Of a DNA stretch of 42,385 nucleotides, positions 2,850 to 38,792 are shown piece after piece. Each line of letters begins with the position of its first letter. The first letter of the stretch is position 1. The notes under the pieces are model-generated. The model searched no databases. It was not told where the DNA came from and saw nothing but the letters and a program-made list of their open reading frames with translations. The stretch comes from an uncultured Gammaproteobacteria bacterium (GTDB taxonomy: Bacteria > Patescibacteriota > Patescibacteriia > UBA2196), in NCBI GenBank assembly GCA_964488715.1, contig CAZAVD010000002.1:7093-49477 (forward strand), read 5' to 3'. Both the position numbers and the translations under genes were made by a program.

Positions 2850-4049
2850 TTATCTATTTGCCAGATAAAATTCTTCTTTAGAAATTAGATTTATAAAAAC
2901 AGAAACCACTGCGCCTAATATAAAAATCCAAACAATATTAATATTTAATGCTAATAAAATTAAAGCTAAAATTACCATAATAATTCTACCCCAGGTTAAA
3001 GCTGTTTCGCGCATAATAGTAAATTCATCAACATAATGTCCTTCATCAGCTGCAATTTCATACATTAAAGCATCAAATGGCGTACGCATTAATATGCCAG
3101 TAAAGTTATGATAAATCCCAACAAGAAAAATATGCAAACCTGATTCAATAATAGCCTTAAAAATCCAACCCAAACTATACAAAATGCTACCAGTACGCAT
3201 TAACTTTTTCTTATCAAACTTATCTGTTGCTTCACCAACAATATATCTAATCACGCATGAGACCAAAACAACTGCTGCAGAAATTAAACCTACTTGCATA
3301 TATTTTCCATCTAATAAGATAAAAATAAAAATTGGCCAGATTAAACAACCAATATAGTTTTGAAAACCATCAGCCATATATGCTAAATTAGTTTTAATAT
3401 GCTGACCATCAAAAAACTGTTTAAAAGTCTCAAAATATCCAAAACTATATTTTTCCCTTGTATGTGGAACAAAAAATAATGGGAAAATAGAAATAAATAA
3501 AACAACACTAGCTAATATATATAAAACAGAAAAACCAAATTTAGAAATAATAAAAGCAGAAAAAATTGGCAATAAAATTCCAATTAATGAAACAATAATA
3601 GCTAAAAAACTTATCTGTCGACCGCGATGATGTTTGTTGATAAATCGCGCAAAATCAACATGATATGGAATCCAGAAAAAAACTCTAAAAGTTGTTCCAA
3701 AAAAGATTAAACTTACAATTAATGGCCAGATTATTTCATTAGCTTGAGCTAGAAAATAAAAAATTAAAAAATAAACAATCAACAATAAATTGCCGATTAT
3801 CATAAAAAAATGCAAACTTTTGTATTTCATTATTTTAGCCCACAAAGGCATTGCTAAAATATAAAATAAATTTAAAGCACCATAAAAAATTAAAGCAAAT
3901 TTTAAACTCCCGCTTAAAGTATAAACAAAAATTGGACCAAACATTCCAATTATACTTACCCCTATATCACGGATAATTTTACCCATATATAGACTTCGCA
4001 AACCTAATGATAATTTTTCCATTTTTTGAATTTTAGAAAATATATTCAT
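2850..4049 (-). CDS. Polytopic membrane transporter, MFS-like (tentative)
   Basis: 399 aa, hydrophobic helices throughout; 1-nt gap to tsaC, 4-nt overlap with upstream HD gene. Confidence 0.6.
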   Translation of the reverse strand: MNIFSKIQKMEKLSLGLRSLYMGKIIRDIGVSIIGMFGPIFVYTLSGSLKFALIFYGALNLFYILAMPLWAKIMKYKSLHFFMIIGNLLLIVYFLIFYFLAQANEIIWPLIVSLIFFGTTFRVFFWIPYHVDFARFINKHHRGRQISFLAIIVSLIGILLPIFSAFIISKFGFSVLYILASVVLFISIFPLFFVPHTREKYSFGYFETFKQFFDGQHIKTNLAYMADGFQNYIGCLIWPIFIFILLDGKYMQVGLISAAVVLVSCVIRYIVGEATDKFDKKKLMRTGSILYSLGWIFKAIIESGLHIFLVGIYHNFTGILMRTPFDALMYEIAADEGHYVDEFTIMRETALTWGRIIMVILALILLALNINIVWIFILGAVVSVFINLISKEEFYLANR

Positions 4050-4809: not shown

Positions 4810-7269
4810 CTAAACAACAATACTAATTAATTTATTTTTAATAAAAATAATTTTTTTAGGTGTTTTATTATCTAGCCATTTTTGAATTTTTTCAGAATCT
4901 AAAACTACTTTTTTAGCTTCATCTTCAGAAATATTTGCATTTACTAAAATTTTATCTCTAACTTTTCCATTCACTTGAACTACTAACTCTATTTCATCAG
5001 CTTGAATCAAGCTTTCATCATATTCTGGCCACTTTTCTTTGGCAAGTGCTTGATCATTGCCAAGCAAGTGCCATAATTCCTCTGAAATGTGTGGGGCAAA
5101 TGGAGATAATAATAAAATTAAATTTTTATAAATTTCTTTAGAAATATTTTCTTGTTTTTCTAGATTATTTACTAAAATCATCATTTGTGAAATTGCTGTG
5201 TTAAATTTCATTTCTTCAATATCTTCAGTAACTTTTTTAATCGTCTGGTGCATCAAGATATCAAGTTTTGATTTTTGACTTGCAATTTTAACTTTTAAAT
5301 TTTGACTTTTAACTTTTTTTTGTAAATTCCAAACTTTATCCAAAAATCTTTTTACCCCAATTATTCCCTTGTCGCTCCAGGATCCACCATCTTCAAACGG
5401 AGCTAAAAATAAAACATAAGTTCTAAAAACATCTGCTCCATATTTTTTAATATAATCATCCGGAGTGATTGAACTTCCTTTTGATTTTGACATTTTTGTT
5501 CCATCTTCAGCTAAAATCATTCCTTGATGAGTTAATTTTATAAATGGCTCATCAAAATTTATTAATTTTTGATCATGTAAAACTTTTGTGATAAATCTTG
5601 CATACAATAAATGCATAACAGCATGTTCTGCTCCCCCACAATATTGATCAACTGGTAACCACTTATCTACTAAATTTTTATCAAATGCTTTGTCATTTAA
5701 ATCTGGATTTATAAATCTTAAAAAATACCAAGATGAGCACACAAAAGTATCCATTGTTTCTGTACTGCGTTTGGCATCTATTCCACATTTAGGACATTTA
5801 GTATTAACAAAATTTTTAGATCTAGCAAGCGGCGATTCACCCTCATCAGTTGGTTTAAAATCTTCTAATTCAGGCAATTGTACTGGCAAATTTTCATCTA
5901 AAACTTCACCGCATTTTTCACAATAAATAATTGGAATTGGCGCGCCCCAATATCTTTGTCTAGAAATTAGCCAATCGCGCAGCTTATAATTAACAGCTTT
6001 TTTGCCTAATTTATTCTCTTCAAGCCAATCACTAATCTTATTAATTGCATCTTTGGGCTTTGAATTATCTAAAAAATCAGAATTAACCATTTTTCCTGAA
6101 TCTATTTCTGTAAAAGCCTCTTTATCAACATCACCACCTTTAATAACTTCAATAATTTCTAAGTTATATTTCTTAGCAAATTCCCAATCTCTTTCATCAT
6201 GAGCTGGTACAGCCATAATTGCGCCTGTTCCATAATTCATCATCACATAATCTGCAACAAAAATTGGAATTGGTTTGTTATTTACGGGATTAATTGCCTG
6301 AACACCTTTTAATTCAACTCCGGTTTTATTTTTATTTAAATCTCCTCTTTCTAAATCAGATTTTTTACTAGCTTTTTGGATATATTTTTTTACTTCTTGG
6401 AAATTGGAAATTGTATCTTGGAACTTGCTGATAAGCTGATGTTCTGGCGCAATAACCATAAAAGTTGCGCCAAACAAAGTATCAGGTCGTGTAGTAAATA
6501 CTTCAAGTTTAAGGGATCCCTCCGCTCCACTCACTCGTTCCTCACTCGTTCCTGTCGGGATGACAGAAAAAAAGACATTTGCTCCCACAGACTTGCCAAT
6601 CCAATTCTTCTGCATTGTAATTGTTTTTTTAGGCCAATTAATTTTATTATGATCTTGTAATAACTTATCAGCATAATCTGTAATTTTAAAAAACCATTGT
6701 TTTAAATTTTTCTGAACTACTTCTGAATCACATCTTTCACATTTTCCAGAAACAACCTGTTCATTTGCCAATACAGTTTTACAAGAAGGGCACCAATTAA
6801 CTGGGGCTTCTGCTTGATAAGCTAAACCAGCTTTGTATAAAACAGAAAAAATCCATTGTGTCCATTTATAATATTCTGGAGAAGATGTATCAATTTCCTT
6901 TTCCCAATCATACATTAAACCTAATTCCCTAAGTTGCTGTTTTGAATATTCAATATTTTTACTTGTACTTTCAGCTGGATGAACACCTGTCTTAATTGCA
7001 TAATTTTCTGCTGGCAAACCAAACGCATCTGCTCCCATTGGCTGAAAAACATTAAAACCTTGCATTTTTTTGTATCTGCCAAACACATCTGAACCAGTAA
7101 AATTATACCCATGCCCAATATGAATTTTATCGCCAGAAGGATAATAAAACATAACTAAATTATAAAATTTAGTTTTTAATTCATTGTCTAAATCGCAAAA
7201 ATTAGTCTTATTGTCTTCCCAATACTTTTGCCATTTTTTTTCAATTATTTTGTGATTATATTCTTGCAT
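4810..7269 (-). CDS. leuS: Leucine--tRNA ligase
   Basis: YPSGDKIHIGHGYNF (HIGH), VFTTRPDTLFG, KMSKSKGS (KMSKS), 819 aa. Confidence 0.95.
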   Translation of the reverse strand: MQEYNHKIIEKKWQKYWEDNKTNFCDLDNELKTKFYNLVMFYYPSGDKIHIGHGYNFTGSDVFGRYKKMQGFNVFQPMGADAFGLPAENYAIKTGVHPAESTSKNIEYSKQQLRELGLMYDWEKEIDTSSPEYYKWTQWIFSVLYKAGLAYQAEAPVNWCPSCKTVLANEQVVSGKCERCDSEVVQKNLKQWFFKITDYADKLLQDHNKINWPKKTITMQKNWIGKSVGANVFFSVIPTGTSEERVSGAEGSLKLEVFTTRPDTLFGATFMVIAPEHQLISKFQDTISNFQEVKKYIQKASKKSDLERGDLNKNKTGVELKGVQAINPVNNKPIPIFVADYVMMNYGTGAIMAVPAHDERDWEFAKKYNLEIIEVIKGGDVDKEAFTEIDSGKMVNSDFLDNSKPKDAINKISDWLEENKLGKKAVNYKLRDWLISRQRYWGAPIPIIYCEKCGEVLDENLPVQLPELEDFKPTDEGESPLARSKNFVNTKCPKCGIDAKRSTETMDTFVCSSWYFLRFINPDLNDKAFDKNLVDKWLPVDQYCGGAEHAVMHLLYARFITKVLHDQKLINFDEPFIKLTHQGMILAEDGTKMSKSKGSSITPDDYIKKYGADVFRTYVLFLAPFEDGGSWSDKGIIGVKRFLDKVWNLQKKVKSQNLKVKIASQKSKLDILMHQTIKKVTEDIEEMKFNTAISQMMILVNNLEKQENISKEIYKNLILLLSPFAPHISEELWHLLGNDQALAKEKWPEYDESLIQADEIELVVQVNGKVRDKILVNANISEDEAKKVVLDSEKIQKWLDNKTPKKIIFIKNKLISIVV
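6396..6427. repeat. AT-rich heptad-unit element copy inside leuS
   Basis: CTTGGAAATTGGAAATTGTATCTTGGAACTTG; 18-nt core GGAAATTGTATCTTGGAA at 6406-6423, translated FQDTIS. Confidence 0.85.
6514..6564 (-). repeat. Long-form GTCATCC...GGGATCC element in frame in leuS
   Basis: Minus strand GTCATCCCGACAGGAACGAGTGAGGAACGAGTGAGTGGAGCGGAGGGATCC (51 nt, 17 codons); tandem 11-mer GGAACGAGTGA x2; encodes VIPTGTSEERVSGAEGS. Confidence 0.85.
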
Positions 7270-7381: not shown

Positions 7382-8713
7382 TTGCTCTCTTCTCTGCTAC
7401 GCAGTGGGGTTTTTTTATTTAAAAAAATTAGCCAATTATTTGTGTGGCTAATACACCCAATTAACAAAATATTTTACTTTGTTTTTAAAAAAATAATCCT
7501 GCCAATATATAATTTAGTTTATTTTTTTAAGAAGAAACTTCAATCTGAAAAAGAAAATAGTTTAGATAATAAAATCATTTTACTTTTAGCTAATAAATAT
7601 TTAATTTACACATTGGCTGTTATTTTGTCAGCTGGAATTTTAATTAATAATTTCACAATTTCAGGCGCAGCTGCTGAAGATTTAGGTAAAAAAAGTTTAT
7701 TATACAAAATAGCACAAGGCAGTGAGTTTGAAGAAATTATTGAAGAAAGAAGCGCGATTATTGAAGAAAATATTGATAAAAAATCAAAACCAACAACTTC
7801 TTCTGAAACATCCAAAACCATTAGTTTAAATATTGAAAAAACAACTTTAACTCGCAGTGAAAAACCACGGGAAATTGATACATCAAATTTACAAGAAACA
7901 ACTGTGGCTGAAGGTTTGGCGGCTGAAACAATTTCCAAAACTGGATCCATTACTACTCTGTCAGTACCAAAACCTAAATCTGAAATTACAGAATATATTG
8001 TAGAATCTGGTGATACAATTTCAAACATTGCTAAAAAATTCCAAATTTCAATTAATACAATTTTATGGGCAAACGATTTAAGCGGGTTAAGTATTATTCG
8101 TCCAAATGACAAACTAACTATTCCACCAACCAGCGGTGTAATTCATAAAGTTAAAAAAGGTGATACTATTTCCGCTATTGCTAAGAAATATAACATTGAA
8201 CAAAATGCTATTTTAAATTTTAATCAGTTGGTTAATAATGATCAATTATCAATTGGCCAAGTTTTAATTGTGCCAGGTGGTGAAATTAAACAAATTTACC
8301 GTAGAACAACAAGTGGTTTTGCATCAGTCTTTAAACCATCTTCATCACAAAAAAAAGCTCACGGTTTTATTTGGCCAACTGTGTCACGTCGTATTACTCA
8401 ATATTATCATTGGCGTCATCATGCCCTTGATATTGGTGGTAAAACTGGTTCACCACTTTATGCTTCAATGTCTGGAAAAATTACAAAAGCTGGCTGGGGA
8501 CGCGGTTATGGTTATCATGTTGTTATTGATCATGGTGGTGGCAAAAAAACTCTTTACGCTCATATGTCAAAAATTTATGTTCAACGCGGAGATCAAGTTA
8601 CACAAGGATCCGTTATTGGCGCTTTAGGTTCAACTGGATGGTCAACTGGCCCGCATTTACATTTTGAAATTACAATTAATGGAACCAAAGTAAATCCATT
8701 GAGTTATCTTTAA
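7382..8713 (+). CDS. Secreted LysM-LysM-M23 peptidoglycan endopeptidase
   Basis: Two LysM repeats (YIVESGDTISNIAKKF..., HKVKKGDTISAIAKKY...), M23 motifs HHALDIGG and GPHLHFEI; TTG start from track, exact start uncertain. Confidence 0.85.
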   Translation: MLSSLLRSGVFLFKKISQLFVWLIHPINKIFYFVFKKIILPIYNLVYFFKKKLQSEKENSLDNKIILLLANKYLIYTLAVILSAGILINNFTISGAAAEDLGKKSLLYKIAQGSEFEEIIEERSAIIEENIDKKSKPTTSSETSKTISLNIEKTTLTRSEKPREIDTSNLQETTVAEGLAAETISKTGSITTLSVPKPKSEITEYIVESGDTISNIAKKFQISINTILWANDLSGLSIIRPNDKLTIPPTSGVIHKVKKGDTISAIAKKYNIEQNAILNFNQLVNNDQLSIGQVLIVPGGEIKQIYRRTTSGFASVFKPSSSQKKAHGFIWPTVSRRITQYYHWRHHALDIGGKTGSPLYASMSGKITKAGWGRGYGYHVVIDHGGGKKTLYAHMSKIYVQRGDQVTQGSVIGALGSTGWSTGPHLHFEITINGTKVNPLSYL

Positions 8714-8715
8714 AT

Positions 8716-8762
8716 GGTAGTCATCCTGAGCGACCTTTAGGATCGTTAGGAGCCCAAGGATC
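8716..8762 (+). repeat. Long-form GTCATCC...AAGGATC element
   Basis: GGTAGTCATCCTGAGCGACCTTTAGGATCGTTAGGAGCCCAAGGATC; near-identical to 24527-24572; begins 2 nt after the M23 stop. Confidence 0.9.
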
Positions 8763-8771
8763 TTATTGTAA

Positions 8772-8822
8772 AATTTCCAATTTCCAAGATACGATTTCCA
8801 AATAAATTTCAAATTCCAAAAT
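8772..8822 (-). repeat. AT-rich heptad-unit element, intergenic copy
   Basis: Reverse complement ATTTTGGAATTTGAAATTTATTTGGAAATCGTATCTTGGAAATTGGAAATT aligns with rsmA 1549-1606. Confidence 0.85.
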
Positions 8823-8826
8823 AAAA

Positions 8827-8861
8827 AATCCGCAGTGAAAATCTACTGCGGATTTTGTTTT
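8827..8861 (+). terminator. Rho-independent terminator, possibly bidirectional
   Basis: AATCCGCAGT-GAAAATCT-ACTGCGGATT then TTTGTTTT; A-run upstream. Confidence 0.75.
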
Positions 8862-9112: not shown

Positions 9113-9150
9113 TGTCGCCAGATAGGAACGATCGTTCCTATCTGGCGACA
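9113..9150. repeat. Perfect 38-bp palindrome, downstream flank of Cas2-like gene
   Basis: TGTCGCCAGATAGGAACGATCGTTCCTATCTGGCGACA. Confidence 0.95.
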
Positions 9151-9174: not shown

Positions 9175-9729
9175 TTATATAACTTTCTTAGCAATAATAA
9201 ACTTTACAAATTGACTTAAATCACATTTATGAACTAAATGTCTGATTAATTTAAAAGATTGTTCTCTATTGGTTTGAAAAACACTATTTTGAAGATAATC
9301 AAAACCTAAACCATAAAGCGATTTTCTAAAAAGGTTTCTTGCTCTTTTTAATCTTTCTGGTACATCAAAAATAACTATATAAATTTCATTACTTTTTTTC
9401 TTTTTAGAACGCTTCATTTCCAGAGGATAAGAAATTAATTTTAACCAACCTTTTTTAGTTAACATTAATCTTTTTTTCTTGTCTTCTATTATAAGATCAC
9501 TTTTTTTTAATTTAGTAATCATTTGACTAATTCTTCTTTTTTCTTTTATTTCTTCTCTTTTTTCTTCATTTTTCACTTGTCTACTTTTATAAAGGTCAAA
9601 CAAATTAGGTCTATAAATATATTCTCTAAAATCAATCAATCCGCCAACTGCTCCGCCTATTATTTGTAAAACTTCTTTGGTTAACGAAGGTTTAAAAAGC
9701 TCTTTTTTATTATTATTTTTTGTTTTCAT
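9175..9729 (-). CDS. wHTH + Cas2-like (PaaX-family-like) protein, paralogue A
   Basis: IYIVIFDVPERLKRARNLFRKSLYGLGFDYLQNSVF resembles the Cas2 / PaaX middle-domain signature; LIIEDKKKRLMLTKKGW is wHTH-like; paralogue at 24714-25232. Confidence 0.6.
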   Translation of the reverse strand: MKTKNNNKKELFKPSLTKEVLQIIGGAVGGLIDFREYIYRPNLFDLYKSRQVKNEEKREEIKEKRRISQMITKLKKSDLIIEDKKKRLMLTKKGWLKLISYPLEMKRSKKKKSNEIYIVIFDVPERLKRARNLFRKSLYGLGFDYLQNSVFQTNREQSFKLIRHLVHKCDLSQFVKFIIAKKVI

Positions 9730-9741
9730 AAACTTTTTTAG

Positions 9742-9779
9742 TGTAGCGTAATAGGAACGATCGTTCCTATTACGCTACA
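9742..9779. repeat. Perfect 38-bp palindrome, upstream flank of Cas2-like gene
   Basis: TGTAGCGTAATAGGAACGATCGTTCCTATTACGCTACA; shares the 20-bp core with 9113-9150. Confidence 0.95.
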
Positions 9780-23852: not shown

Positions 23853-24518
23853 TTAAAATAAAAAATCTTTCATCCTCTCATACAAATCTTTAGTTGCAAC
23901 AACATCTCTCATACAATATTCAGCTATTTTTTTATATTCTTTATTTTTAAATAAATTATTTACTTCAAGTCCTGAAACACCTTCATCTTTTGGATTTTTT
24001 ATTCCAAATGTTTGGCACAAACTTTCCAAAGAAAGTTTTCTAAATGCTCCATAAAAACTTAATTGATCCATTATATCTAAATGTTCTTTTGTTGAATAGC
24101 GATAAGGCATTAAATTTTTTGTTGGTTTTAAATTATGATAAATTGAGCGGATAATAATAAAAGGGCAATCAAAGCCTCTTCCATTAAAAGAAATTATTTG
24201 TTCAAAAAATCTAATATCTTGCCAAAAACTTTCTAAAATTCCTTTTTCATCTTTAACAATATATTCTATATTATTTTTTGTATAATTTTCTATATTATTT
24301 TTTGGTGCTTGAAAATATACTTTGCCTTGCCCTGAATCTGAATTTAACATTGCAATAGCAACTACTTCTCCGCTAATTGGCAATAAACCAGTGCGTGATA
24401 AAATATCCTCACGCTCTTTTTCATCTTTAGCGTTTTTAATTAAATATTCTTTTATTATTGGATCAAGTTCATCTTTTTCTTGACCACAAGTTTCAATATC
24501 AAATATTAATTTAGGCAT
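23853..24518 (-). CDS. RNase H-fold 3'-5' exonuclease related to the PolB exonuclease domain
   Basis: LIFDIETCG (ExoI DxE), SFNGRGFDCPFI (ExoII), YCMRDVVATKDLY (ExoIII). Confidence 0.75.
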   Translation of the reverse strand: MPKLIFDIETCGQEKDELDPIIKEYLIKNAKDEKEREDILSRTGLLPISGEVVAIAMLNSDSGQGKVYFQAPKNNIENYTKNNIEYIVKDEKGILESFWQDIRFFEQIISFNGRGFDCPFIIIRSIYHNLKPTKNLMPYRYSTKEHLDIMDQLSFYGAFRKLSLESLCQTFGIKNPKDEGVSGLEVNNLFKNKEYKKIAEYCMRDVVATKDLYERMKDFLF

Positions 24519-24526
24519 ATTTTTAA

Positions 24527-24572
24527 GGTAGTCATCCTGAGCGACCTTTAGGATTTTAGGAGCCGAAGGATC
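24527..24572 (+). repeat. Long-form GTCATCC...AAGGATC element
   Basis: GGTAGTCATCCTGAGCGACCTTTAGGATTTTAGGAGCCGAAGGATC; lies 8 nt upstream of the exonuclease ATG on the opposite strand. Confidence 0.9.
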
Positions 24573-24633: not shown

Positions 24634-24661
24634 GTTCAAATAAATTATTTCTATTTCAAAC

Positions 24662-24696
24662 ATAGACTCTTAACTCACGGCCGTGAGTTAATGACA
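24662..24696. repeat. 35-nt repeat with perfect 20-bp palindromic core, downstream flank of Cas2-like paralogue B
   Basis: ATAGACTCTTAACTCACGGCCGTGAGTTAATGACA; core TAACTCACGGCCGTGAGTTA. Confidence 0.9.
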
Positions 24697-24713
24697 AGTA
24701 ATTTATTAGTAAT

Positions 24714-25232
24714 TTATATTAGGCCAAACCTTTCCTTTAGTTTATCCTCACTACTGATTTTATCAGCCTCAATATACTGAAACCAATCACCTTCTCTAAA
24801 TCCTGGTATAATATCATACAAATAATTTAATACATCATAAGGGAATACCCAAACACTTTTTTGTAATTGATAGAATCCTATATCTATTAAGCTTTTTCTT
24901 AAATTATCTCTAAATTTTCTTTTTGTTTCTGGTATATCAAATATTAGGATGCGCCATTTTTTGTCCCATTTAGCTTTATCAATTTTATTTTTAATAATTA
25001 TTTTTGAAACTTCTTGCTTGCCTTTTTTAGTTAAATCACATCTTTTTTTACTTTTATTGTATTTAATATATTTACCTCTTTCCAAGTTACGATAAGCATA
25101 ATAAGGTATACCGCCAATTGATTGTTTAATATAACCATAAGGATTAATTAAATAAAAAATCAACCCTTCATTTTCATCAATAAAATTTTTTAAAAATTCT
25201 ATTGTTTTTTGACCTAATTTTCTTGTTTTCAT
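24714..25232 (-). CDS. wHTH + Cas2-like (PaaX-family-like) protein, paralogue B
   Basis: WDKKWRILIFDIPETKRKFRDNLRKSLIDIGFYQLQKSVWVFP matches the PaaX-type signature; LERGKYIKYNKSKKRCDLTKKGK is wHTH-like. Confidence 0.65.
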   Translation of the reverse strand: MKTRKLGQKTIEFLKNFIDENEGLIFYLINPYGYIKQSIGGIPYYAYRNLERGKYIKYNKSKKRCDLTKKGKQEVSKIIIKNKIDKAKWDKKWRILIFDIPETKRKFRDNLRKSLIDIGFYQLQKSVWVFPYDVLNYLYDIIPGFREGDWFQYIEADKISSEDKLKERFGLI

Positions 25233-25234
25233 AT

Positions 25235-25269
25235 ATAGACTTTTATCTCACGATCGTGAGTTAATGATA
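25235..25269. repeat. 35-nt repeat with palindromic core, upstream flank of paralogue B
   Basis: ATAGACTTTTATCTCACGATCGTGAGTTAATGATA; 30/35 identical to 24662-24696 in direct orientation; overlapped by a TTGCTT-17-TATCAT promoter on the minus strand. Confidence 0.9.
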
Positions 25270-25314
25270 GCAAATTAAATTTAAAAAAGCAAAAAAATAT
25301 GATAATAAAAAAAT

Positions 25315-26647: not shown

Positions 26648-26702
26648 GGGATCCCATCGCCTTGACCCAATCCTAAAAAATCCTATCAAGACTCGGGATG
26701 AC
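26648..26702 (-). repeat. Long-form GTCATCC...GGGATCC element 5 nt after the rpoC stop
   Basis: Minus strand GTCATCCCGAGTCTTGATAGGATTTTTTAGGATTGGGTCAAGGCGATGGGATCC. Confidence 0.8.
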
Positions 26703-26707
26703 AATCT

Positions 26708-29700
26708 TCACCCTTTATACCCTGTGCCTGCTGGGATTAATTTGCCGATTATTACATTTTCCTTTAACCCACGAAGTTGATCAACTTTACCAGTTACAGC
26801 AGCGTCAATTAAAATTCTTGCAGTTTCTTGAAATGAAGCAGCTGATAAAAACGAAGAAGTTGAAAGCGAAGCTTTTGTTATTCCAAGTAAAACTTTGTTT
26901 CCTTTAGCTGTCATTTGTTTAGCTTCAGATAATTTTGTATTTATTTCATTAAATTCAGATAATTCCACAATTTCACCTGGCGAAAAATTAGAATCACCTG
27001 GCTCATCAATCATTACTCTAGAAAACATTTGTCTAGCAATAATTTCTACATGTTTGTCATTTAATTTCTGACCTTGGGAAGAATAAATATACTGAATTTC
27101 TTTTAAAACATATTTCTGCGCTGCTAATTGTCCACGCAAATTATATAAATCATGTAAATCTAAGGCTCCATCAGTTAATTGCTGTCCTTGCTCAACATTA
27201 TCTTTATCATTTACCCAAATATTCATATCACTAACTGCTGGTAATTCTTTTTCAGTTAATTTTTTACTTTCAATTAAGACAACCCATTCATCGTCATTGC
27301 TTTTATCTAATTTAACTTTACCATTAAAATTAGCTTTTTCTTCTTTATTTTTAGTTTGCAAAATTAAATCATTTTTCTTAACTTTATCTTTATCTTTAAT
27401 TTCTAATCCAGAAACATCTTTTTTGCTTACAAAAATCTCCTGTTGCTTTGTTTCATATCCTTTAATTTTAATTATTTTTTGTTTTTTTTCTTCATCTTTA
27501 ACAATAATTACTTGCCCATTAATTGGAGCCATTAAAGCTGGTTTTTTAACTTGTCTTGCTTCAAAAATTTCCTGAACTCTTGGCAAACCTTGAGTAATGT
27601 CACCACCAGCAGCTACTCCACCAGTATGAAAAGTTCTCATTGTTAACTGTGTTCCAGGCTCACCAATACTTTGAGCTGCCACAATTCCAACTGAAGTGCC
27701 TTTATTTACAATTCTATTATAACCTAAATCCCATCCATAACATTTAGTACATAAACCTCTATTAGTCTTACAAGTTAAAACTGAACGCACTTTTAATTTT
27801 TCCAAATCTAGTTCTTCTAAACTGCGAAAAATTTTATAATCTATTAATTTATTTTTCTTAACAATTATTTCTCCCTTTGCATCTTTAACTGTTTCTAAAC
27901 TCACTCGCCCTAAAGAACGTTTTGCCAAACTTGTTCCCATTTCATCTGATTCAGTTTTTAATAAATCAACACCTTCTTTATCTTTACAATCATCTTCAGT
28001 AATAATTAAACTTTGCGAAACATCAACTAATTTGCGAGTTAAATATCCAGCTTCAGCTGTTCTTAAAGCTGTATCAGTTAAACCTTTTCGCGCACCATGA
28101 GTGGAAATAAAATATTCTAACACATCTAGCCCTTCTTTATATGATGCTCTAATTGGCAACTCAATTGTTTCACCTGCTGGATTATTAACCAATCCTTTCA
28201 TTCCCATCATCTGATTAGTTTGATTCCATGAACCACGCGATCCTGATTCAATCATTGCATAAACAGGACTATCTTTAACTTTAGATAAAGTTTCACGGCA
28301 TGATTCAGTAATATTATCAATTACATCAAACCATGCTCTATTTGATTTAGTTCTTCGTTCATCATTAGTTAATAATCCCATATCATATTCTTCTCTAGCT
28401 TCATTTACTTTAGCTTCGGCTTGAGTAATCAATTCTGTTTTACTAGGCAACTCAGGCAAATCACCCATACTCCAAGTTATTCCTGATTGTGTCATATATT
28501 TAATAGCTAAATCTTTTAAATCATCTAATAATTTAGCAGTATCATCAATACCGCAATGCTCAAGAGAATCACTAACTAATTTTTTTAAAGCGCCTTTATC
28601 CATTGAATTATTAACAAATCTTAATTTAGGTTGTAGAATTTGATTAAAAAGTATTCTTCCAACACTAGTTATAACTGGATTTTCTTTAACTAAAAAAGTA
28701 ACTTCTGATAAAAATTCATCATCTAACCTAACCTTTATTAATTCTTGCAAACCAATATGTTTTAATTCATAAGCTAATATCGCTTCTTCTGGACTAGAAA
28801 ATATTTTCATTTTTTTGTCCTTTATATCATGTGAATTATTATCAATATAAGTTAGATAATAAATACCTAATACAAAATCTAAAGCAGGAGTGCTAACTGG
28901 TGTTCCATCACCAACTTTTAATAAATTTTTAGAAGATAGCATTATTTCTGCTGCTTCTTTTTTAGCTTCATTAGTTAATGGAACATGAACAGCCATTTGA
29001 TCACCATCAAAATCAGCATTAAAAGCACCACACACAAATGGATGCAACTGAATGGCTTTACCTTCAATTAAAACTGGTTGAAAAGCTTGAATACCTAAAC
29101 GATGCAAGGTTGGCGCACGATTTAACATTACATGCGCATTTTTAATAATCTTTTCTAAAATATCATAAACTTCTGTGTGTCCTGAATCAATAAAACGATT
29201 AGCAGACCGAACATTGTGCGCGTGTTCTTGCTTAATTAATTGAGAAATTACAAATGGTTTAAATAATTCTAAAGCCATTTTCTTAGGTAATCCACATTGA
29301 TAAAGTTTTAAATGTGGACCAACAACAATTACTGATCGTCCAGAATAATCAACTCGTTTACCCAACAAATTTGATCTAAAACGACCCTGTTTACCTTTTA
29401 ATGAATCAGCCAAACTCTTTAACATTCTTTGTTGTCCAGTTGATGCAGTAACTGTTTTTCCGTGTCGCGCTGAATTATCAATCAAAGCATCAGCTGCTTC
29501 TTGCAACATTCTTTTTTCATTTCTTACAATAACTTCTGGGGCATTTAATTCTAATAATCTTTTTAAACGATTATTACGATTAATTACACGACGATATAAA
29601 TCATTTAAATCAGAAGCAGCATATCTACCACCTTCTAAAGCTACCATTGGCCTAACATCTGGAGGTATAACTGGAACAGTAGTCAATATCATCCATTCTG

Positions 29701-30595
29701 GACGAATTTTTCTTTCATTTAAACTATTTAAAATTTTATATCGTTTAATAATTTTTCTGCGTTTAACTGGTGTAGCGCTTTTTAATTCTTTATTCATTTC
29801 AGCTAATTCTTTTTCTAAATCCATTTGAGTTAAAAGATTGCGCACTGCTTCAGCCCCAATTTCAGCTTCAAAAATATGACCATATTTTAAAGCCAAATCT
29901 TGATAAGCATTTTCTGAAATAATTTGTCTAACTTGTAATTCTTTTAATTCTTTTTTAGACATATCAGCAATCATACTTAACTCTTTTAATGCATTATTTT
30001 TAGCTACTTCAATTTCATTTAATTTAGTTTCTTTATCTTGCATTGAAAATTTAACATCACTTTGAATCTGTTTTTTTTGATTATTAAAATTACCTTCAAT
30101 TTGTTTCTTTTTTTGTTTTAATTCATTATCTAATTGATCCAAAGTTTCTTTACGCAAATCTTCATCTACTTTTGTTACAATAAAACTAGCAAAATAAATT
30201 ACTTTTTCTAATTCTTGAGCTGAAATATCTAAACACAAACCAATTTTGGATGGCACGCCGCGTAAAAACCAAATATGTGAAATCGGAGTTGCTAATTCAA
30301 TATGACCCATTCTTTCTCTACGAACCAAGGATCGTGTCACTTCTACTCCACACTTATCACAAACAATTCCTTTATAGCGAATTCTTTTATACTTTCCACA
30401 ATAACATTCCCAGTCTTTTGACGGACCAAATATTTTTTCGCAAAACAAACCATCTTTCTCAGGTTTCTGAGTTCTGTAATTAATTGTTTCCGGTTTTAAA
30501 ACTTGACCATAAGACCAACTTTTAATTGCTTCTGGCGAAGCAACCCGCAAACGAATTGCATTAAAATCTAAAGTTTTTTGTTCATCATTATGCAT
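26708..30595 (-). CDS. rpoC: DNA-directed RNA polymerase subunit beta'
   Basis: NADFDGDQMAVH catalytic motif, zinc-binding CYCGKY...CDKCGV, 1295 aa. Confidence 0.97.
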   Translation of the reverse strand: MHNDEQKTLDFNAIRLRVASPEAIKSWSYGQVLKPETINYRTQKPEKDGLFCEKIFGPSKDWECYCGKYKRIRYKGIVCDKCGVEVTRSLVRRERMGHIELATPISHIWFLRGVPSKIGLCLDISAQELEKVIYFASFIVTKVDEDLRKETLDQLDNELKQKKKQIEGNFNNQKKQIQSDVKFSMQDKETKLNEIEVAKNNALKELSMIADMSKKELKELQVRQIISENAYQDLALKYGHIFEAEIGAEAVRNLLTQMDLEKELAEMNKELKSATPVKRRKIIKRYKILNSLNERKIRPEWMILTTVPVIPPDVRPMVALEGGRYAASDLNDLYRRVINRNNRLKRLLELNAPEVIVRNEKRMLQEAADALIDNSARHGKTVTASTGQQRMLKSLADSLKGKQGRFRSNLLGKRVDYSGRSVIVVGPHLKLYQCGLPKKMALELFKPFVISQLIKQEHAHNVRSANRFIDSGHTEVYDILEKIIKNAHVMLNRAPTLHRLGIQAFQPVLIEGKAIQLHPFVCGAFNADFDGDQMAVHVPLTNEAKKEAAEIMLSSKNLLKVGDGTPVSTPALDFVLGIYYLTYIDNNSHDIKDKKMKIFSSPEEAILAYELKHIGLQELIKVRLDDEFLSEVTFLVKENPVITSVGRILFNQILQPKLRFVNNSMDKGALKKLVSDSLEHCGIDDTAKLLDDLKDLAIKYMTQSGITWSMGDLPELPSKTELITQAEAKVNEAREEYDMGLLTNDERRTKSNRAWFDVIDNITESCRETLSKVKDSPVYAMIESGSRGSWNQTNQMMGMKGLVNNPAGETIELPIRASYKEGLDVLEYFISTHGARKGLTDTALRTAEAGYLTRKLVDVSQSLIITEDDCKDKEGVDLLKTESDEMGTSLAKRSLGRVSLETVKDAKGEIIVKKNKLIDYKIFRSLEELDLEKLKVRSVLTCKTNRGLCTKCYGWDLGYNRIVNKGTSVGIVAAQSIGEPGTQLTMRTFHTGGVAAGGDITQGLPRVQEIFEARQVKKPALMAPINGQVIIVKDEEKKQKIIKIKGYETKQQEIFVSKKDVSGLEIKDKDKVKKNDLILQTKNKEEKANFNGKVKLDKSNDDEWVVLIESKKLTEKELPAVSDMNIWVNDKDNVEQGQQLTDGALDLHDLYNLRGQLAAQKYVLKEIQYIYSSQGQKLNDKHVEIIARQMFSRVMIDEPGDSNFSPGEIVELSEFNEINTKLSEAKQMTAKGNKVLLGITKASLSTSSFLSAASFQETARILIDAAVTGKVDQLRGLKENVIIGKLIPAGTGYKG

Positions 30596-33885: not shown

Positions 33886-34103
33886 AGTTTATGCGCGTAA
33901 AAAAAACCATCCCTCCGTTCAACTTATCCACAGGAAGGTTCTTGACTTTTACGTTTTTAGCTATCTAGTTGTAGCTGCCTTCATAAATTGCTAATTTTAG
34001 CGGAAAATTCCGCTTGCCTGAGGCAGAAAAATATATAATAATTTAAACTTTTTACACAATTATATTTAAAATAACATGGTTTGAATTTTGTGTCAAATTT
34101 TTC

Positions 34104-34136
34104 TGTTGGCTCCTGGCTGTGCCTGGAGCCATTTTG
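34104..34136 (+). repeat. GGCTCCAGG-family hairpin, inverted relative to the other copies, with T-run on the plus strand
   Basis: TGTTGGCTCCTGG-CTGTG-CCTGGAGCC then ATTTTGTT; reverse complement aligns with 38743-38769. Confidence 0.7.
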
Positions 34137-34171
34137 TTATTCCATTAAAAATTTATTTTAGAAGAATTATT

Positions 34172-34791: not shown

Positions 34792-34857
34792 GTAACTATA
34801 TATTAAAATTTTCTTTATCATCTCTATAATCTCTACTTATTATACAATTTGCTTCCA

Positions 34858-34887
34858 CCTGTCATCCCTGCGAAGGCAGGGATCCAG
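34858..34887 (+). repeat. Short-form hairpin repeat CCTGTCATCC-stem-loop-GGATCCAG
   Basis: CCTGTCATCCCTGCGAAGGCAGGGATCCAG. Confidence 0.9.
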
Positions 34888-34976
34888 TTAATGGATTTAA
34901 ATACCCCAATAATACATCAACTTTCCAAAGATTATCACAGAAACCAGGTTTAATTAATTTTAATAAAGTATAAATA

Positions 34977-35006
34977 CTGGATTCCCGCTTTCGCGGGAAT
35001 GACAGG
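34977..35006 (-). repeat. Short-form hairpin repeat
   Basis: Minus strand CCTGTCATTCCCGCGAAAGCGGGAATCCAG. Confidence 0.9.
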
Positions 35007-35011
35007 AAGAG

Positions 35012-35041
35012 CTGGACTCCTGCCTACGCAGGAGTGACAGG
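35012..35041 (-). repeat. Short-form hairpin repeat, 4 nt after the GIY-YIG stop
   Basis: Minus strand CCTGTCACTCCTGCGTAGGCAGGAGTCCAG. Confidence 0.9.
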
Positions 35042-35045
35042 AAAA

Positions 35046-35345
35046 TCAAAACAATTCATCATACAAATCATCCCAATCAGGATTTTCTTCTTCAATTAAT
35101 TTAATCTTCCATTGTCTTTTCCATTTTTTCATTTGTTTTTCTCTTGTTATTGCATCATTTACATAATAATATGTTTCATAATAAACTAATTTATCTACAT
35201 TATATTCTTTAGTAAATCCTTCAATTTCTTTACTTTTATGTTCTTCCACTCTACATGTCAAATCTGAAGTCATTCCAATGTATAAAGTGCCATTTCTTTT
35301 ACTAGCTAGGATATAGACAAAATAGTATTTATCAAATTTTGCCAT
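35046..35345 (-). CDS. Small stand-alone GIY-YIG nuclease, YhbQ/UPF0213-like
   Basis: YFVYILASKRNGTLYIGMTSDLTCRVEEHK, FTKEYNVDKLVYYE, REKQMKKWKRQWKIKLIEEENPDWDDL. Confidence 0.85.
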   Translation of the reverse strand: MAKFDKYYFVYILASKRNGTLYIGMTSDLTCRVEEHKSKEIEGFTKEYNVDKLVYYETYYYVNDAITREKQMKKWKRQWKIKLIEEENPDWDDLYDELF

Positions 35346-35380
35346 ATATGTGGTGGTTTTAATTATTATTTATTTTAAAT

Positions 35381-35408
35381 GGATCCCTGCCTACGCAGGG
35401 ATGACAGG
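35381..35408 (-). repeat. Short-form hairpin repeat, 35 nt upstream of the GIY-YIG ATG
   Basis: Minus strand CCTGTCATCCCTGCGTAGGCAGGGATCC. Confidence 0.9.
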
Positions 35409-35485
35409 TGGTATAAATTTATTATTTTATAAAGTATTAAATGAATATTATCGCTGAAGTCAGAGACTGGAGCCAACATACACGT

Positions 35486-38649
<3,164 letters not shown>

Positions 38650-38730: not shown

Positions 38731-38765
38731 ATAAAACAAAAAGGCTCCAGGTGCAACCTGGAGCC
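38731..38765 (-). terminator. Rho-independent terminator (GGCTCCAGG-family hairpin)
   Basis: GGCTCCAGG-TGCAA-CCTGGAGCC perfect 9-bp stem; on minus strand followed by TTTTTGTTTT. Confidence 0.8.
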
Positions 38766-38792
38766 AACACAAAATAAGGGGTGACAAGAACT

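Follow-up and report, generated by a model that had tools for sequence, protein, structure and literature searches.

An Ssn-family GIY-YIG nuclease gene and its candidate cognate hairpins in a Patescibacteria-like genome

Pattern matching across the whole stretch of DNA analysed here (42,385 nucleotides, hereafter the 42-kb window) revealed four hairpins of 28-30 nt surrounding the gene for a 99-aa GIY-YIG protein (Table 1); protein and hairpin motif are those of the Ssn family, and a second copy of this module is present in the same samples. We consider it very probable (roughly 0.85) that the open reading frame encodes a single-domain endonuclease of the cd10448 type that is specific for single-stranded DNA (ssDNA), and that the four hairpins are its cognate SRMs, of the NTS type. 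The Ssn family was defined as a group of site-specific ssDNA endonucleases with a motif termed NTS or SRM (Chenal et al., Nat Commun 2025; PMC11893778), and the association of gene and hairpins, which appeared in 2025 with the description of this enzyme family, is not new as a discovery. In that work, four Ssn homologues cut ssDNA site-specifically beside the motif in vitro, and SsnA bound the NTS/SRM hairpin and cleaved a few nucleotides upstream of it, acting on ssDNA only and not on double-stranded DNA (dsDNA) or RNA (PMC11893778). The GTC 5' of the palindrome and the C 3' of it were critical for both cutting and binding, and in N. meningitidis the role of Ssn is the restriction of transforming ssDNA (PMC11893778).

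Table 1. Features of the ssn locus and long SRM-like elements, in window positions
Feature	Position	Strand	Description
ssn gene	35046..35345	-	99 aa; Ssn-family endonuclease with one GIY-YIG domain (from ORF and Pfam; activity predicted)
SRM hairpin 1	35379..35408	-	sense orientation of the gene; 33 nt 5' of the ssn ATG; sequence CCTGTCATCCCTGCGTAGGCAGGGATCCAT
SRM hairpin 2	35012..35041	-	4 nt past the ssn stop; orientation as hairpin 1; stem ACTCCTGC/GCAGGAGT
SRM hairpin 3	34977..35006	-	tandem with hairpin 2; stem ATTCCCGC/GCGGGAAT
AT-rich spacer, 89 nt	34888..34976	.	separates the tandem hairpins from the inverted hairpin
SRM hairpin 4	34858..34887	+	opposite orientation to the gene; forms the right arm of the 46-nt inverted repeat
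Tail, 39 nt	34819..34857	-	beyond the inverted hairpin; holds TTGTATAAT reading toward the downstream gene
Long SRM-like element	6515..6564	-	GTCATCCC...GGGATC; in frame inside leuS
Long SRM-like element	8720..8762	+	intergenic; 7 nt past the stop of ORF 7382-8713
Long SRM-like element	24531..24572	+	intergenic; 12 nt 5' of the start of ORF 23853-24518(-)
Long SRM-like element	26650..26702	-	intergenic; just past the stop of the 1295-aa ORF 26708-30595(-)

Several lines of evidence place the protein in this family. Pfam PF01541 (GIY-YIG) matches residues 7-81 at E=1e-14, with no other domain found, and the protein shares 60% identity with the 94-aa N. gonorrhoeae SsnA orthologue (pairwise E=1e-38); a tblastn search against the N. 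gonorrhoeae chromosome gave E=2e-27, where the homology criterion of Chenal et al. was E < 1e-10 to Neisseria SsnA. We infer that the gonococcal 94-aa ORF is the SsnA orthologue from its homology, its possession of Y6, Y17 and E64 as published, and its surroundings, which hold 16 NTS within 3.2 kb. Residues Y11, Y22 and E69 of the window protein align with these SsnA residues, all three of which have been mutated, and Y11, Y22, R32, H36 and E69 are invariant among 15 aligned sequences. Across phyla, the protein keeps 60-70% identity. Assignment to the cd10448 clade is by proxy, resting on close homology to SsnA and distant similarity to UPF0213, and a sequence search of the PDB returned a weak UPF0213 match (BH0048, 1ZG2, E=0.003) and no Ssn structure. 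PADLOC found no match to a defence system, and with two weak matches among 50,697 phage records the protein is essentially absent from that collection.

The preliminary description of this locus, made from the DNA letters, had reported four hairpin copies with compensatory changes in their stems, and both observations were borne out. Each copy differs from its consensus at 0-1 positions, a level of agreement found 0.00 times in 100 shuffles, and the distances given there also held: 33-35 nt separate the upstream hairpin from the ATG, the first tandem copy follows the stop by 4 nt, and the inverted copy is 89 nt further on. As ssDNA, all four would fold into an 8-bp stem without mismatches, closed by a loop of 4 nt (-8.5 to -10.1 kcal/mol, z -4.0 to -5.3; hairpin 1, -8.5 kcal/mol, z -3.96). 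Three stem versions occur, ATCCCTGC, ATTCCCGC and ACTCCTGC; they vary at positions 2, 3 and 6 of the stem, and at each the partner arm changes to match. The gene is bracketed by a 46-nt inverted repeat with 87% complementarity between its arms (34846-34891 and 35375-35420), whose cores are the outer two hairpins, with hairpin 1 as its left arm.

Hairpin 3 is identical to the Neisseria NTS consensus CGTCATTCCCGCGMAVGCGGGAATCYRG at 27 of 28 positions, and the GTC before the palindrome and the C after it are kept in all four copies. Its stem is also the core palindrome ATTCCC-N8-GGGAAT of the Neisseria dRS3/NIMEs; whereas dRS3 is defined as an unoriented 20-bp repeat and phage integration target, it is the oriented 28-nt form that matters here, NTS being the oriented, longer form of dRS3 (PMC11893778). 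The published degenerate pattern, HGTCWYN(0-2)YYVSBRHN(0-5)WNVSBRGN(0-2)RNCYNB, matches only hairpin 3 of the four. This hand-made pattern excludes the ATCCCTGC and ACTCCTGC stems, although the copies that carry them have all other features of the motif, which suggests that it under-detects genuine motifs. The same stems are evidence against our preferred explanation, as in three copies they differ from the NTS palindrome, and altering the palindrome while keeping the hairpin abolished the activity of Nm SsnA (PMC11893778); recognition of these copies by the window protein would therefore call for a specificity that is broader or has co-evolved. No canonical copy lies away from the ssn gene in the 42-kb window, so that a genome-wide role as in Neisseria, where hundreds of copies are dispersed, is not evident here. 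The locus thus shares with the SsnA/NTS system a single-domain GIY-YIG protein of ~95 aa, the catalytic residues, the hairpin motif and hairpins on both sides of the gene, and differs from it in the host (Patescibacteria-like with 30% G+C, where the paper stresses Pseudomonadati; PMC11893778), in having its four canonical motifs all at the gene, in the three variant-stem copies missed by the published pattern, in an additional long-loop subfamily of 42-53 nt, and in that activity is predicted from homologues.

By homology with the four Ssn enzymes assayed in vitro, the system would operate when DNA turns single-stranded, for instance as incoming transforming DNA or as an intermediate of replication or repair, and the motif folds. 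The Ssn protein would then bind the folded hairpin, recognizing its sequence together with the asymmetric flanks, TGTC 5' and C(CA) 3', and its Tyr/Tyr/Arg/His/Glu-Mg2+ centre would make a nick a few nucleotides from the motif on its 5' side. The cut would be limited to the strand that carries the motif in sense orientation. Binding and cleavage of ssDNA by the window protein itself are predictions made by analogy with these homologues.

The association extends well beyond this locus. We surveyed 80 homologous loci, drawn from many phyla, for hairpins within 200 nt of the gene and beyond: 71 loci have a hairpin within that distance and 51 have hairpins on both sides, a result that supports the proposal in the preliminary description of this nuclease as trans-acting partner of the hairpins; in the published survey, one or more SRMs lie near 71% of the homologues (PMC11893778). 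Close to the gene there are 5.8 hairpins per kb, against 0.20 further away and 0.036 in shuffled sequence, an enrichment of ~30 times over the more distant sequence across the 80 loci. When candidates were chosen on GTCA-N18-TCC alone (n=127), 111 paired at all 7 inner stem positions, with strong covariation at stem position 6 (TA 54, CG 44, AT 17). The family-wide motif profile has T at position 0 in 80% and A after CC in 94%, its GTCA and TCC being fixed by the search pattern itself. Convergent hairpin doublets without the gene are present in several loci.

The four longer elements with the same termini noted earlier in the window all exist; the shared-termini pattern gives 8 window matches in total, against 0.14 expected. 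These longer elements fold no better than shuffled sequence (z -0.4 to +0.5, with no stable hairpin at 6515-6564) and have a terminal stem of 5 bp only, and we therefore treat them as a related but distinct subfamily with a long loop (42-53 nt). These four variants are the only dispersed members of the family in the window. The elements at 8720 and 24531 are ~85% identical over 46 nt (family D20, 8698-8743 versus 24509-24554). The element within leuS contributes VIPTGTSEERVSGAEGS to a variable loop in the editing domain, and 12 homologues are without 8-12 of these residues. In being translated in frame inside a gene it resembles the Rickettsia palindromic elements, which sit in frame within genes; it differs in that it belongs to another sequence family and is a single case here.

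The second module (L081) is ~95% identical to the first in DNA sequence and lies in another context, fmt - ssn - 73-aa ORF; both loci are carried by samples such as ERZ23499085, ERZ23498905, JGI 3300008625 and 3300008627. Its composition is close to that of the window (tetranucleotide r=0.98; GC 28.5% against 29.6%), which suggests that both modules reside in the same genome. Homology between the two begins sharply at the junction CC/TGTCA (window 35408), which precedes the NTS-equivalent by 2 nt; from the published work, cleavage can be deduced to occur about 3 nt upstream (PMC11893778), which would put the left homology boundary within about 1 nt of the expected cut. On the right, homology extends 39 nt past the inverted hairpin (blastn, window 34819-34887 versus L081 3324-3392, 94.2%). 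The 39-nt tail has no further copy in the window and is thus not a pre-existing repeat that would explain the shared right flank; its TTGTATAAT could possibly serve as an outward promoter. Hairpin 4 is conserved in L081, hairpins 2 and 3 and most of the 89-nt spacer are absent from it, and the fmt reading frame runs through a hairpin. The two lineage copies of ssn differ at 15 nt and 4 aa, with dN/dS 0.09. Judged by these sequence comparisons, the SRM-ssn-SRM arrangement is a self-contained unit that has been copied at least once in the lineage, and the second module is a hint of past movement.

Whether such units move was raised by Chenal et al. only as a hypothesis, as was the spread of the hairpins (PMC11893778). 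A current or recent autonomous mobile element, of the insertion-sequence or REP/RAYT kind, would be compatible with the Ssn reading and would add mobility to it: Ssn would cut the terminal hairpins to excise or copy the module, and solitary hairpins would be its non-autonomous derivatives. The 46-nt inverted repeat around the gene, the second module in another context, the left boundary close to the deducible cleavage position and the fmt frame running through a hairpin, as expected after insertion, all speak for this possibility, as do the identity of the protein across phyla and the eight Flavobacteriaceae loci in which the module occupies nearly the exact extent of the trpB-trpA spacer. Yet this trpB-trpA position is conserved in at least three genera and looks like vertical inheritance, the right boundary falls past the inverted hairpin rather than at it, and no direct repeat that could be a target-site duplication occurs at either candidate boundary between the window and L081. 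The ~5% divergence of the two copies under purifying selection argues against a recent burst. Among samples, six window-type and ten fmt-type independent contigs are identical bar one SNP, with no polymorphism in hairpin number. Two other exact proteins, from other lineages and on 24 and 11 contigs, occur in one context each. Proteins at 98-99% identity yielded no firm case of a third context: of two contigs, one is a fragment ending at the gene, and the other, an N-containing scaffold mixing both paralogues, was not counted. Paralogues within one MAG (L017 and L057) are merely ~75% identical in DNA, a divergence by which that pair is proved old. An empty site was sought via the neighbouring HD/DUF4202 gene: the metagenome scan found no relative, and relatives at 65-73% identity have wholly different neighbours and no usable synteny. 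We know of no strand-transfer activity for a lone GIY-YIG domain, which also counts against a mobile element.

Like an insertion sequence, the module has inverted terminal repeats; unlike one, it has neither a target-site duplication nor, on the right, an end that coincides with the homology boundary, and its two copies, ~5% diverged, show no polymorphism among the 16 contigs. With REP/RAYT systems it shares a small gene set between inverted copies of its presumed target hairpin, a conserved unpaired 5' tetranucleotide, a predicted action on ssDNA and doublets resembling REPINs, but it encodes a GIY-YIG nuclease, the only domain that Pfam finds, instead of an HUH/Y1 (IS200/IS605-type) transposase, and 42 kb here contain no dispersed canonical hairpin where REP/RAYT genomes have many. 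Taking both sides together, we regard present or recent autonomous mobility as unlikely. A more specific form of the idea, in which the SRM-ssn-SRM unit would be a mobile element of a new mechanistic class that combines a lone GIY-YIG ssDNA nickase with host replication and repair and has left its trace in the left boundary, in the module at the fmt 3' end and in the long-loop hairpin in leuS, is in our view quite doubtful. The proposal in the preliminary description that the small nuclease is the trans-acting factor of the hairpins therefore stands in part: homologues bind and cut the hairpin (PMC11893778) and the two occur together in 71/80 loci, but RAYT-style spreading or maintenance is unproven; no canonical copy is dispersed in the window, and the modules are fixed in place across samples.

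A free-standing homing endonuclease that cuts double-stranded hairpin doublets and is copied in by repair would account for the GIY-YIG domain, for a weak PHROG match to 'homing endonuclease with GIY-YIG motif' (E=1.4e-4) and for the convergent doublets without a gene in several loci. We nevertheless consider it very unlikely, since homologues that have been assayed leave dsDNA uncut (PMC11893778), the protein scores 19.3 against a cut-off of 56.05 for TIGR01453 (group I intron endonuclease), and phage records hold only the two weak matches given above. I-TevI-type enzymes share the catalytic domain, but their linker and DNA-binding domain, cutting of dsDNA and residence in introns and phage genomes do not apply to this protein of 99 aa, which is single-domain and has no DNA-binding domain.

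It is highly improbable that the hairpins act as RNA, as terminators, attenuators or mRNA stabilizers of the flanking genes, with the nuclease nearby by coincidence. Their position at gene boundaries and their G+C-rich stems in a genome of 30% G+C would suit such roles, but no copy is followed by a T-tract, a terminator scan finds none there, and copies stand in both orientations around the gene. An Rfam gathering search of the window returned one tRNA only and no family at the hairpins, conservation of the unpaired flanks (TGTC, CCA) is not expected of a terminator, and the RNA version of the motif is not bound by SsnA (PMC11893778). The 30-fold enrichment beside ssn across phyla demands a specific link. 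Scarcely credible is a DNA-damage-response nuclease of the YhbQ/UPF0213 type merely sitting among unrelated repeats: E. coli YhbQ (b3155) and B. halodurans BH0048, the best PDB sequence match, have the same fold, a similar size (~100 aa) and a single domain, but identity to YhbQ is 24% against the 60% to SsnA, YhbQ lacks the Ssn signature (GFT.KY, LVYYE, REKQMKKW.R.WK, NP.W.DL) and no hairpins flank E. coli yhbQ, so that the name 'YhbQ-type' first given to the gene gives way to the Ssn (cd10448) clade. A literature search for GIY-YIG proteins with palindromic repeats returned fungal mitochondrial and other unrelated papers only.

On the reading that we prefer, an Ssn-family endonuclease with its cognate SRMs, a reduced Patescibacteria-like genome carries one well-formed Ssn module and probably a second. 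Reduced organisms of this kind are thought to depend on scavenged DNA. The boundaries of the paralogous pair of modules can be used to address the question, posed by the authors who described the family, of whether Ssn modules move. As cutters of ssDNA at specific sites, Ssn enzymes also have practical interest, and the three stem variants found at its own locus make this homologue a candidate for studies of specificity.

The best-supported reading of the locus is that the ssn product is an Ssn enzyme with cognate hairpin motifs. The four hairpins lie exactly where the preliminary description placed them, and all fit a 30-nt consensus with 0-1 mismatches, a pattern with no matches in 100 dinucleotide-preserving shuffles; a looser stem-loop pattern, run over the whole 42 kb, recovered these four and no others. 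Folded as single-stranded DNA, each forms a perfect 8-bp stem with a 4-nt loop (-8.5 to -10.1 kcal/mol; z-scores -4.0 to -5.3). The compensatory stem changes described earlier are real: three stem versions occur, varying at positions 2, 3 and 6, with the opposite arm changed to match. A 46-nt inverted repeat, the cores of which are the two outermost hairpins, brackets the gene.

Coordinates and properties of the ssn module and of other repeats (window positions unless a locus is named)
Feature	Coordinates (strand)	Remarks
Hairpin 1	35379-35408(-)	sense; followed by 33-nt leader before ssn
ssn	35046-35345(-)	99 aa, GIY-YIG domain alone (ORF and domain search)
Hairpins 2 and 3	35012-35041(-), 34977-35006(-)	sense; start 4 nt past ssn stop
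Hairpin 4	34858-34887(+)	inverted; beyond 89-nt spacer
Long SRM-like elements	6515-6564(-), 8720-8762(+), 24531-24572(+), 26650-26702(-)	first inside leuS, 4810-7269(-)
Long-loop pair, L081	1726-1767(+), 1797-1839(-)	convergent, 42 nt
fmt ORF, L081	1970-2971	
Second ssn module, L081	2938-3392	
Tandem module, L080 (homologous locus)	2960-4030	hairpins and ssn duplicated, 566-nt period; third unit begins
PaaX_M ORF	9175-9729(-)	E=1e-9; bracketed by palindromes 9113-9150 and 9742-9779
PaaX_M ORF	24714-25232(-)	E=1e-21; bracketed by palindromes 24643-24703 and 25216-25276
Third hairpin family	2507-2571, 34096-34160, 38735-38774	between genes
AT-rich repeat	1546-1607, 6393-6433, 8769-8830, 35889-35930	

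The stem ATTCCC-N8-GGGAAT is that of the Neisseria dRS3 repeat, and hairpin 3 (34977-35004) matches the consensus of the NTS, defined as 28 nt, CGTCATTCCCGCGMAVGCGGGAATCYRG (Chenal et al., Nat Commun 2025, PMC11893778), at 27/28 positions. N. meningitidis ssnA (NMV_0044 / NMB0047) encodes a 94-aa protein of CDD family cd10448, and its homologues across bacteria are flanked by NTS-like motifs termed SRM, at least one lying nearby in 71% and on both sides in 42% (PMC11893778). Purified SsnA binds the motif as ssDNA only, with cleavage a few nucleotides upstream and no activity on dsDNA, RNA or the reverse strand, and cutting is abolished by Y6A, Y17A and E64A (PMC11893778). Cutting depends most on the three nucleotides ahead of the palindrome, and binding on the C that follows it; three further Ssn homologues behave in the same way, and in N. 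meningitidis SsnA lowers transformation by NTS-containing DNA (PMC11893778). Our search for work on the family after Chenal et al. 2025, within one article library, found none.

A PLSDB search with the window protein matched two N. gonorrhoeae records (E=2e-27), in which the matched ORF encodes 94 aa, contains Y6, Y17 and E64, has 16 NTS copies within 3.2 kb and is, as we take it from these features, the SsnA orthologue. NZ_CP119140.1 and NZ_CP119142.1, labelled N. gonorrhoeae plasmids in PLSDB, are 2.17 Mb long, as would be expected of a complete gonococcal chromosome, and look like chromosomes misfiled as plasmids; one carries the ssnA orthologue amid NTS arrays. Residues Y11, Y22 and E69 of the window protein align with the Y6, Y17 and E64 mutated in SsnA and, together with G24, R32 and H36, are invariant in a 15-sequence alignment, in which E. 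coli YhbQ lacks motifs common to the Ssn-like sequences. The name "YhbQ-type" originally given to the nuclease was wrong: it is only 24% identical to E. coli YhbQ, versus 60% (E=1e-38) to the gonococcal protein. Hairpins were looked for beside E. coli yhbQ and none was found, and the sole match in a PDB sequence search was a UPF0213 protein (E=0.003). The published degenerate SRM pattern caught only one of the four window hairpins, a yield that may reflect the narrowness of the pattern rather than any defect of the copies.

A one-genome-per-species scan returned 431 relatives of the window protein, of which the best 80 (59-71% identical) were fetched as loci, from Bacteroidota, Planctomycetota, Chloroflexota, Omnitrophota, Pseudomonadota, several Patescibacteria lineages and others. 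With a simple detector, a hairpin lay within 200 nt of the gene in 71 of these 80 loci, hairpins lay on both sides in 51, and 45 had the layout of sense upstream and antisense downstream; density was 5.8 per kb within 200 nt of the gene, 0.20 per kb in the remainder of the 3-kb flanks and 0.036 per kb in shuffled sequence. Nearly everywhere in the flanks of the 80 loci, tGTCATTCCnGCGnAnGCnGGAATCCA stands directly ahead of the ATG and its reverse complement directly past the stop. Against circularity, a second candidate set was chosen near the gene solely by GTCA-N18-TCC: 111 of 127 candidates paired at all seven inner stem positions, and stem position 6 was TA in 54, CG in 44 and AT in 17. The hairpin is therefore conserved via covariation and its unpaired flanks in sequence. 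That nuclease and hairpin are partners, as proposed from the sequence alone, is borne out by the 71 loci together with the published cleavage by homologues. In eight loci (L010, L013, L028, L031, L040, L049, L059 and L072), hairpin-ssn-hairpin stands between trpB and trpA, oriented like the operon and matching the spacer almost exactly in extent; the hosts are Aquimarina, Ulvibacterium, Flagellimonas and one unclassified member (Flavobacteriaceae).

A second ssn module, at locus L081, encodes P0004, which is 96% identical to the window protein and whose context, fmt - ssn - 73-aa ORF, is unlike that in the window. The two modules probably belong to one genome, as suggested by occurrence in the same samples, GC contents of 28.5% and 29.6%, a tetranucleotide correlation of 0.98 (equal to within-window controls and above any other locus tested) and further short repeats common to both contigs. 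DNA homology between the modules starts abruptly between CC and TGTCA of hairpin 1 (window 35408), spans ssn, picks up again at the inverted hairpin and ends 39 nt past it at 34819; hairpins 2 and 3 and the greater part of the spacer are extra material in the window copy. The L081 fmt ORF continues through the upstream hairpin, and the last Fmt residues (LSSLRRQGSI) are therefore encoded by the repeat. The two ssn genes differ by 15 nt and 4 aa, and their dN/dS of 0.09 argues that both have been kept functional. A further locus, L104 (ERZ23498639 scaffold_148101), has an ssn with an fmt-type 5' half and a window-type 3' half, after which come Ns; either the assembly has fused the two paralogues into a chimera or the scaffold is a recombinant, and it was left out of the evidence.

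The four longer elements that had been described exist as well. Their two ends are GTCATCC(C/T) and (A/G)GGATC, and the interior of 30-40 nt is conserved between copies; the terminal stem is only 5 bp and the fold no better than that of shuffled sequence. The L081 long-loop pair (GTCATYCYGA...GGAGCSGAGGRATC), between a PBP gene and fmt and 1.1 kb from the second module, indicates that the long elements are a real family in this lineage; cleavage persists with NTS halves on separate oligonucleotides (PMC11893778), which suggests that a long loop need not block recognition. Three of the four are intergenic, close against gene ends. The copy inside leuS translates in frame as VIPTGTSEERVSGAEGS, placed in the LeuRS editing domain, in a variable loop just ahead of the VFTTRPDT motif; twelve homologues lack 8-12 of these residues, and it looks as if a repeat had inserted in frame into an essential gene.

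Other repeats occur in the window. Two paralogous ORFs with a PaaX_M (Cas2-like) domain present another palindrome-gene-palindrome layout; the palindromes around ORF 9175-9729(-) are perfect and 38 nt long, have ATAGGAACGATCGTTCCTAT as their common core and differ by compensatory changes in their outer arms. At both ORFs the palindromes could serve as operators, or they could represent a second pairing of protein and hairpin. The third hairpin family, TTGGCTCC-TGG-N5-7-CCTGGAGCCA, with one copy between an HD gene and rpoB, may be terminator-like repeats. Two copies of the AT-rich repeat (TTGGAAATTGTATCTTGGAAATTG and complement) adjoin long SRM-like elements, and one lies within the ligA coding region, 97% identical to the copy at 1572-1604.

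Mobility of the SRM-ssn-SRM module would add to the Ssn-enzyme reading rather than replace it, and we consider it doubtful; NTS-ssnA-NTS has been likened to an insertion sequence and to REP/RAYT as a hypothesis only (Discussion, PMC11893778). The left homology boundary lies 2 nt ahead of the NTS-equivalent, beside the cut about 3 nt ahead implied by oligonucleotide lengths in PMC11893778, but the right boundary is away from the hairpin and no target duplication was found. The inverted-repeat architecture, the copy at another place and the fmt frame passing through its hairpin favor movement, whereas the window and L081 copies are about 5% apart, and two other paralogues (L017 and L057), which lie within one MAG, are old, at about 75% DNA identity. 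Across 6 independent window-type contigs and 10 fmt-type ones the loci do not vary apart from one SNP, and two other exact proteins have one context each across 24 and 11 contigs. One Aquimarina genome has the whole module in tandem duplicate, and modules fill the spacer between trpB and trpA in eight loci of Flavobacteriaceae, yet that site is common to at least three genera. A search for an empty site found none, because the neighbors are not syntenic in relatives. We conclude that the module has undergone one or more copying events, and we see no sign that it is still transposing.

By analogy with SsnA, the window Ssn protein would bind the folded hairpin in ssDNA and then nick 5' of it. 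Action of the hairpins at the RNA level is unlikely, given copies in both orientations, the lack of T-tracts past them, a scan without terminators there, no Rfam match and the failure of SsnA to bind RNA (PMC11893778). That the protein is a dsDNA homing endonuclease is likewise unlikely, as it is single-domain and essentially absent from phages (2 weak matches in 50,697 phage records), its score on the intron-endonuclease model falls under the cut-off, and its tested homologues do not act on dsDNA (PMC11893778). A PADLOC search with the protein gave no match. As an Ssn enzyme with its hairpins, the window locus adds a case to an already published system, and there is a small chance that its paired modules will help to establish the mobility of Ssn modules.
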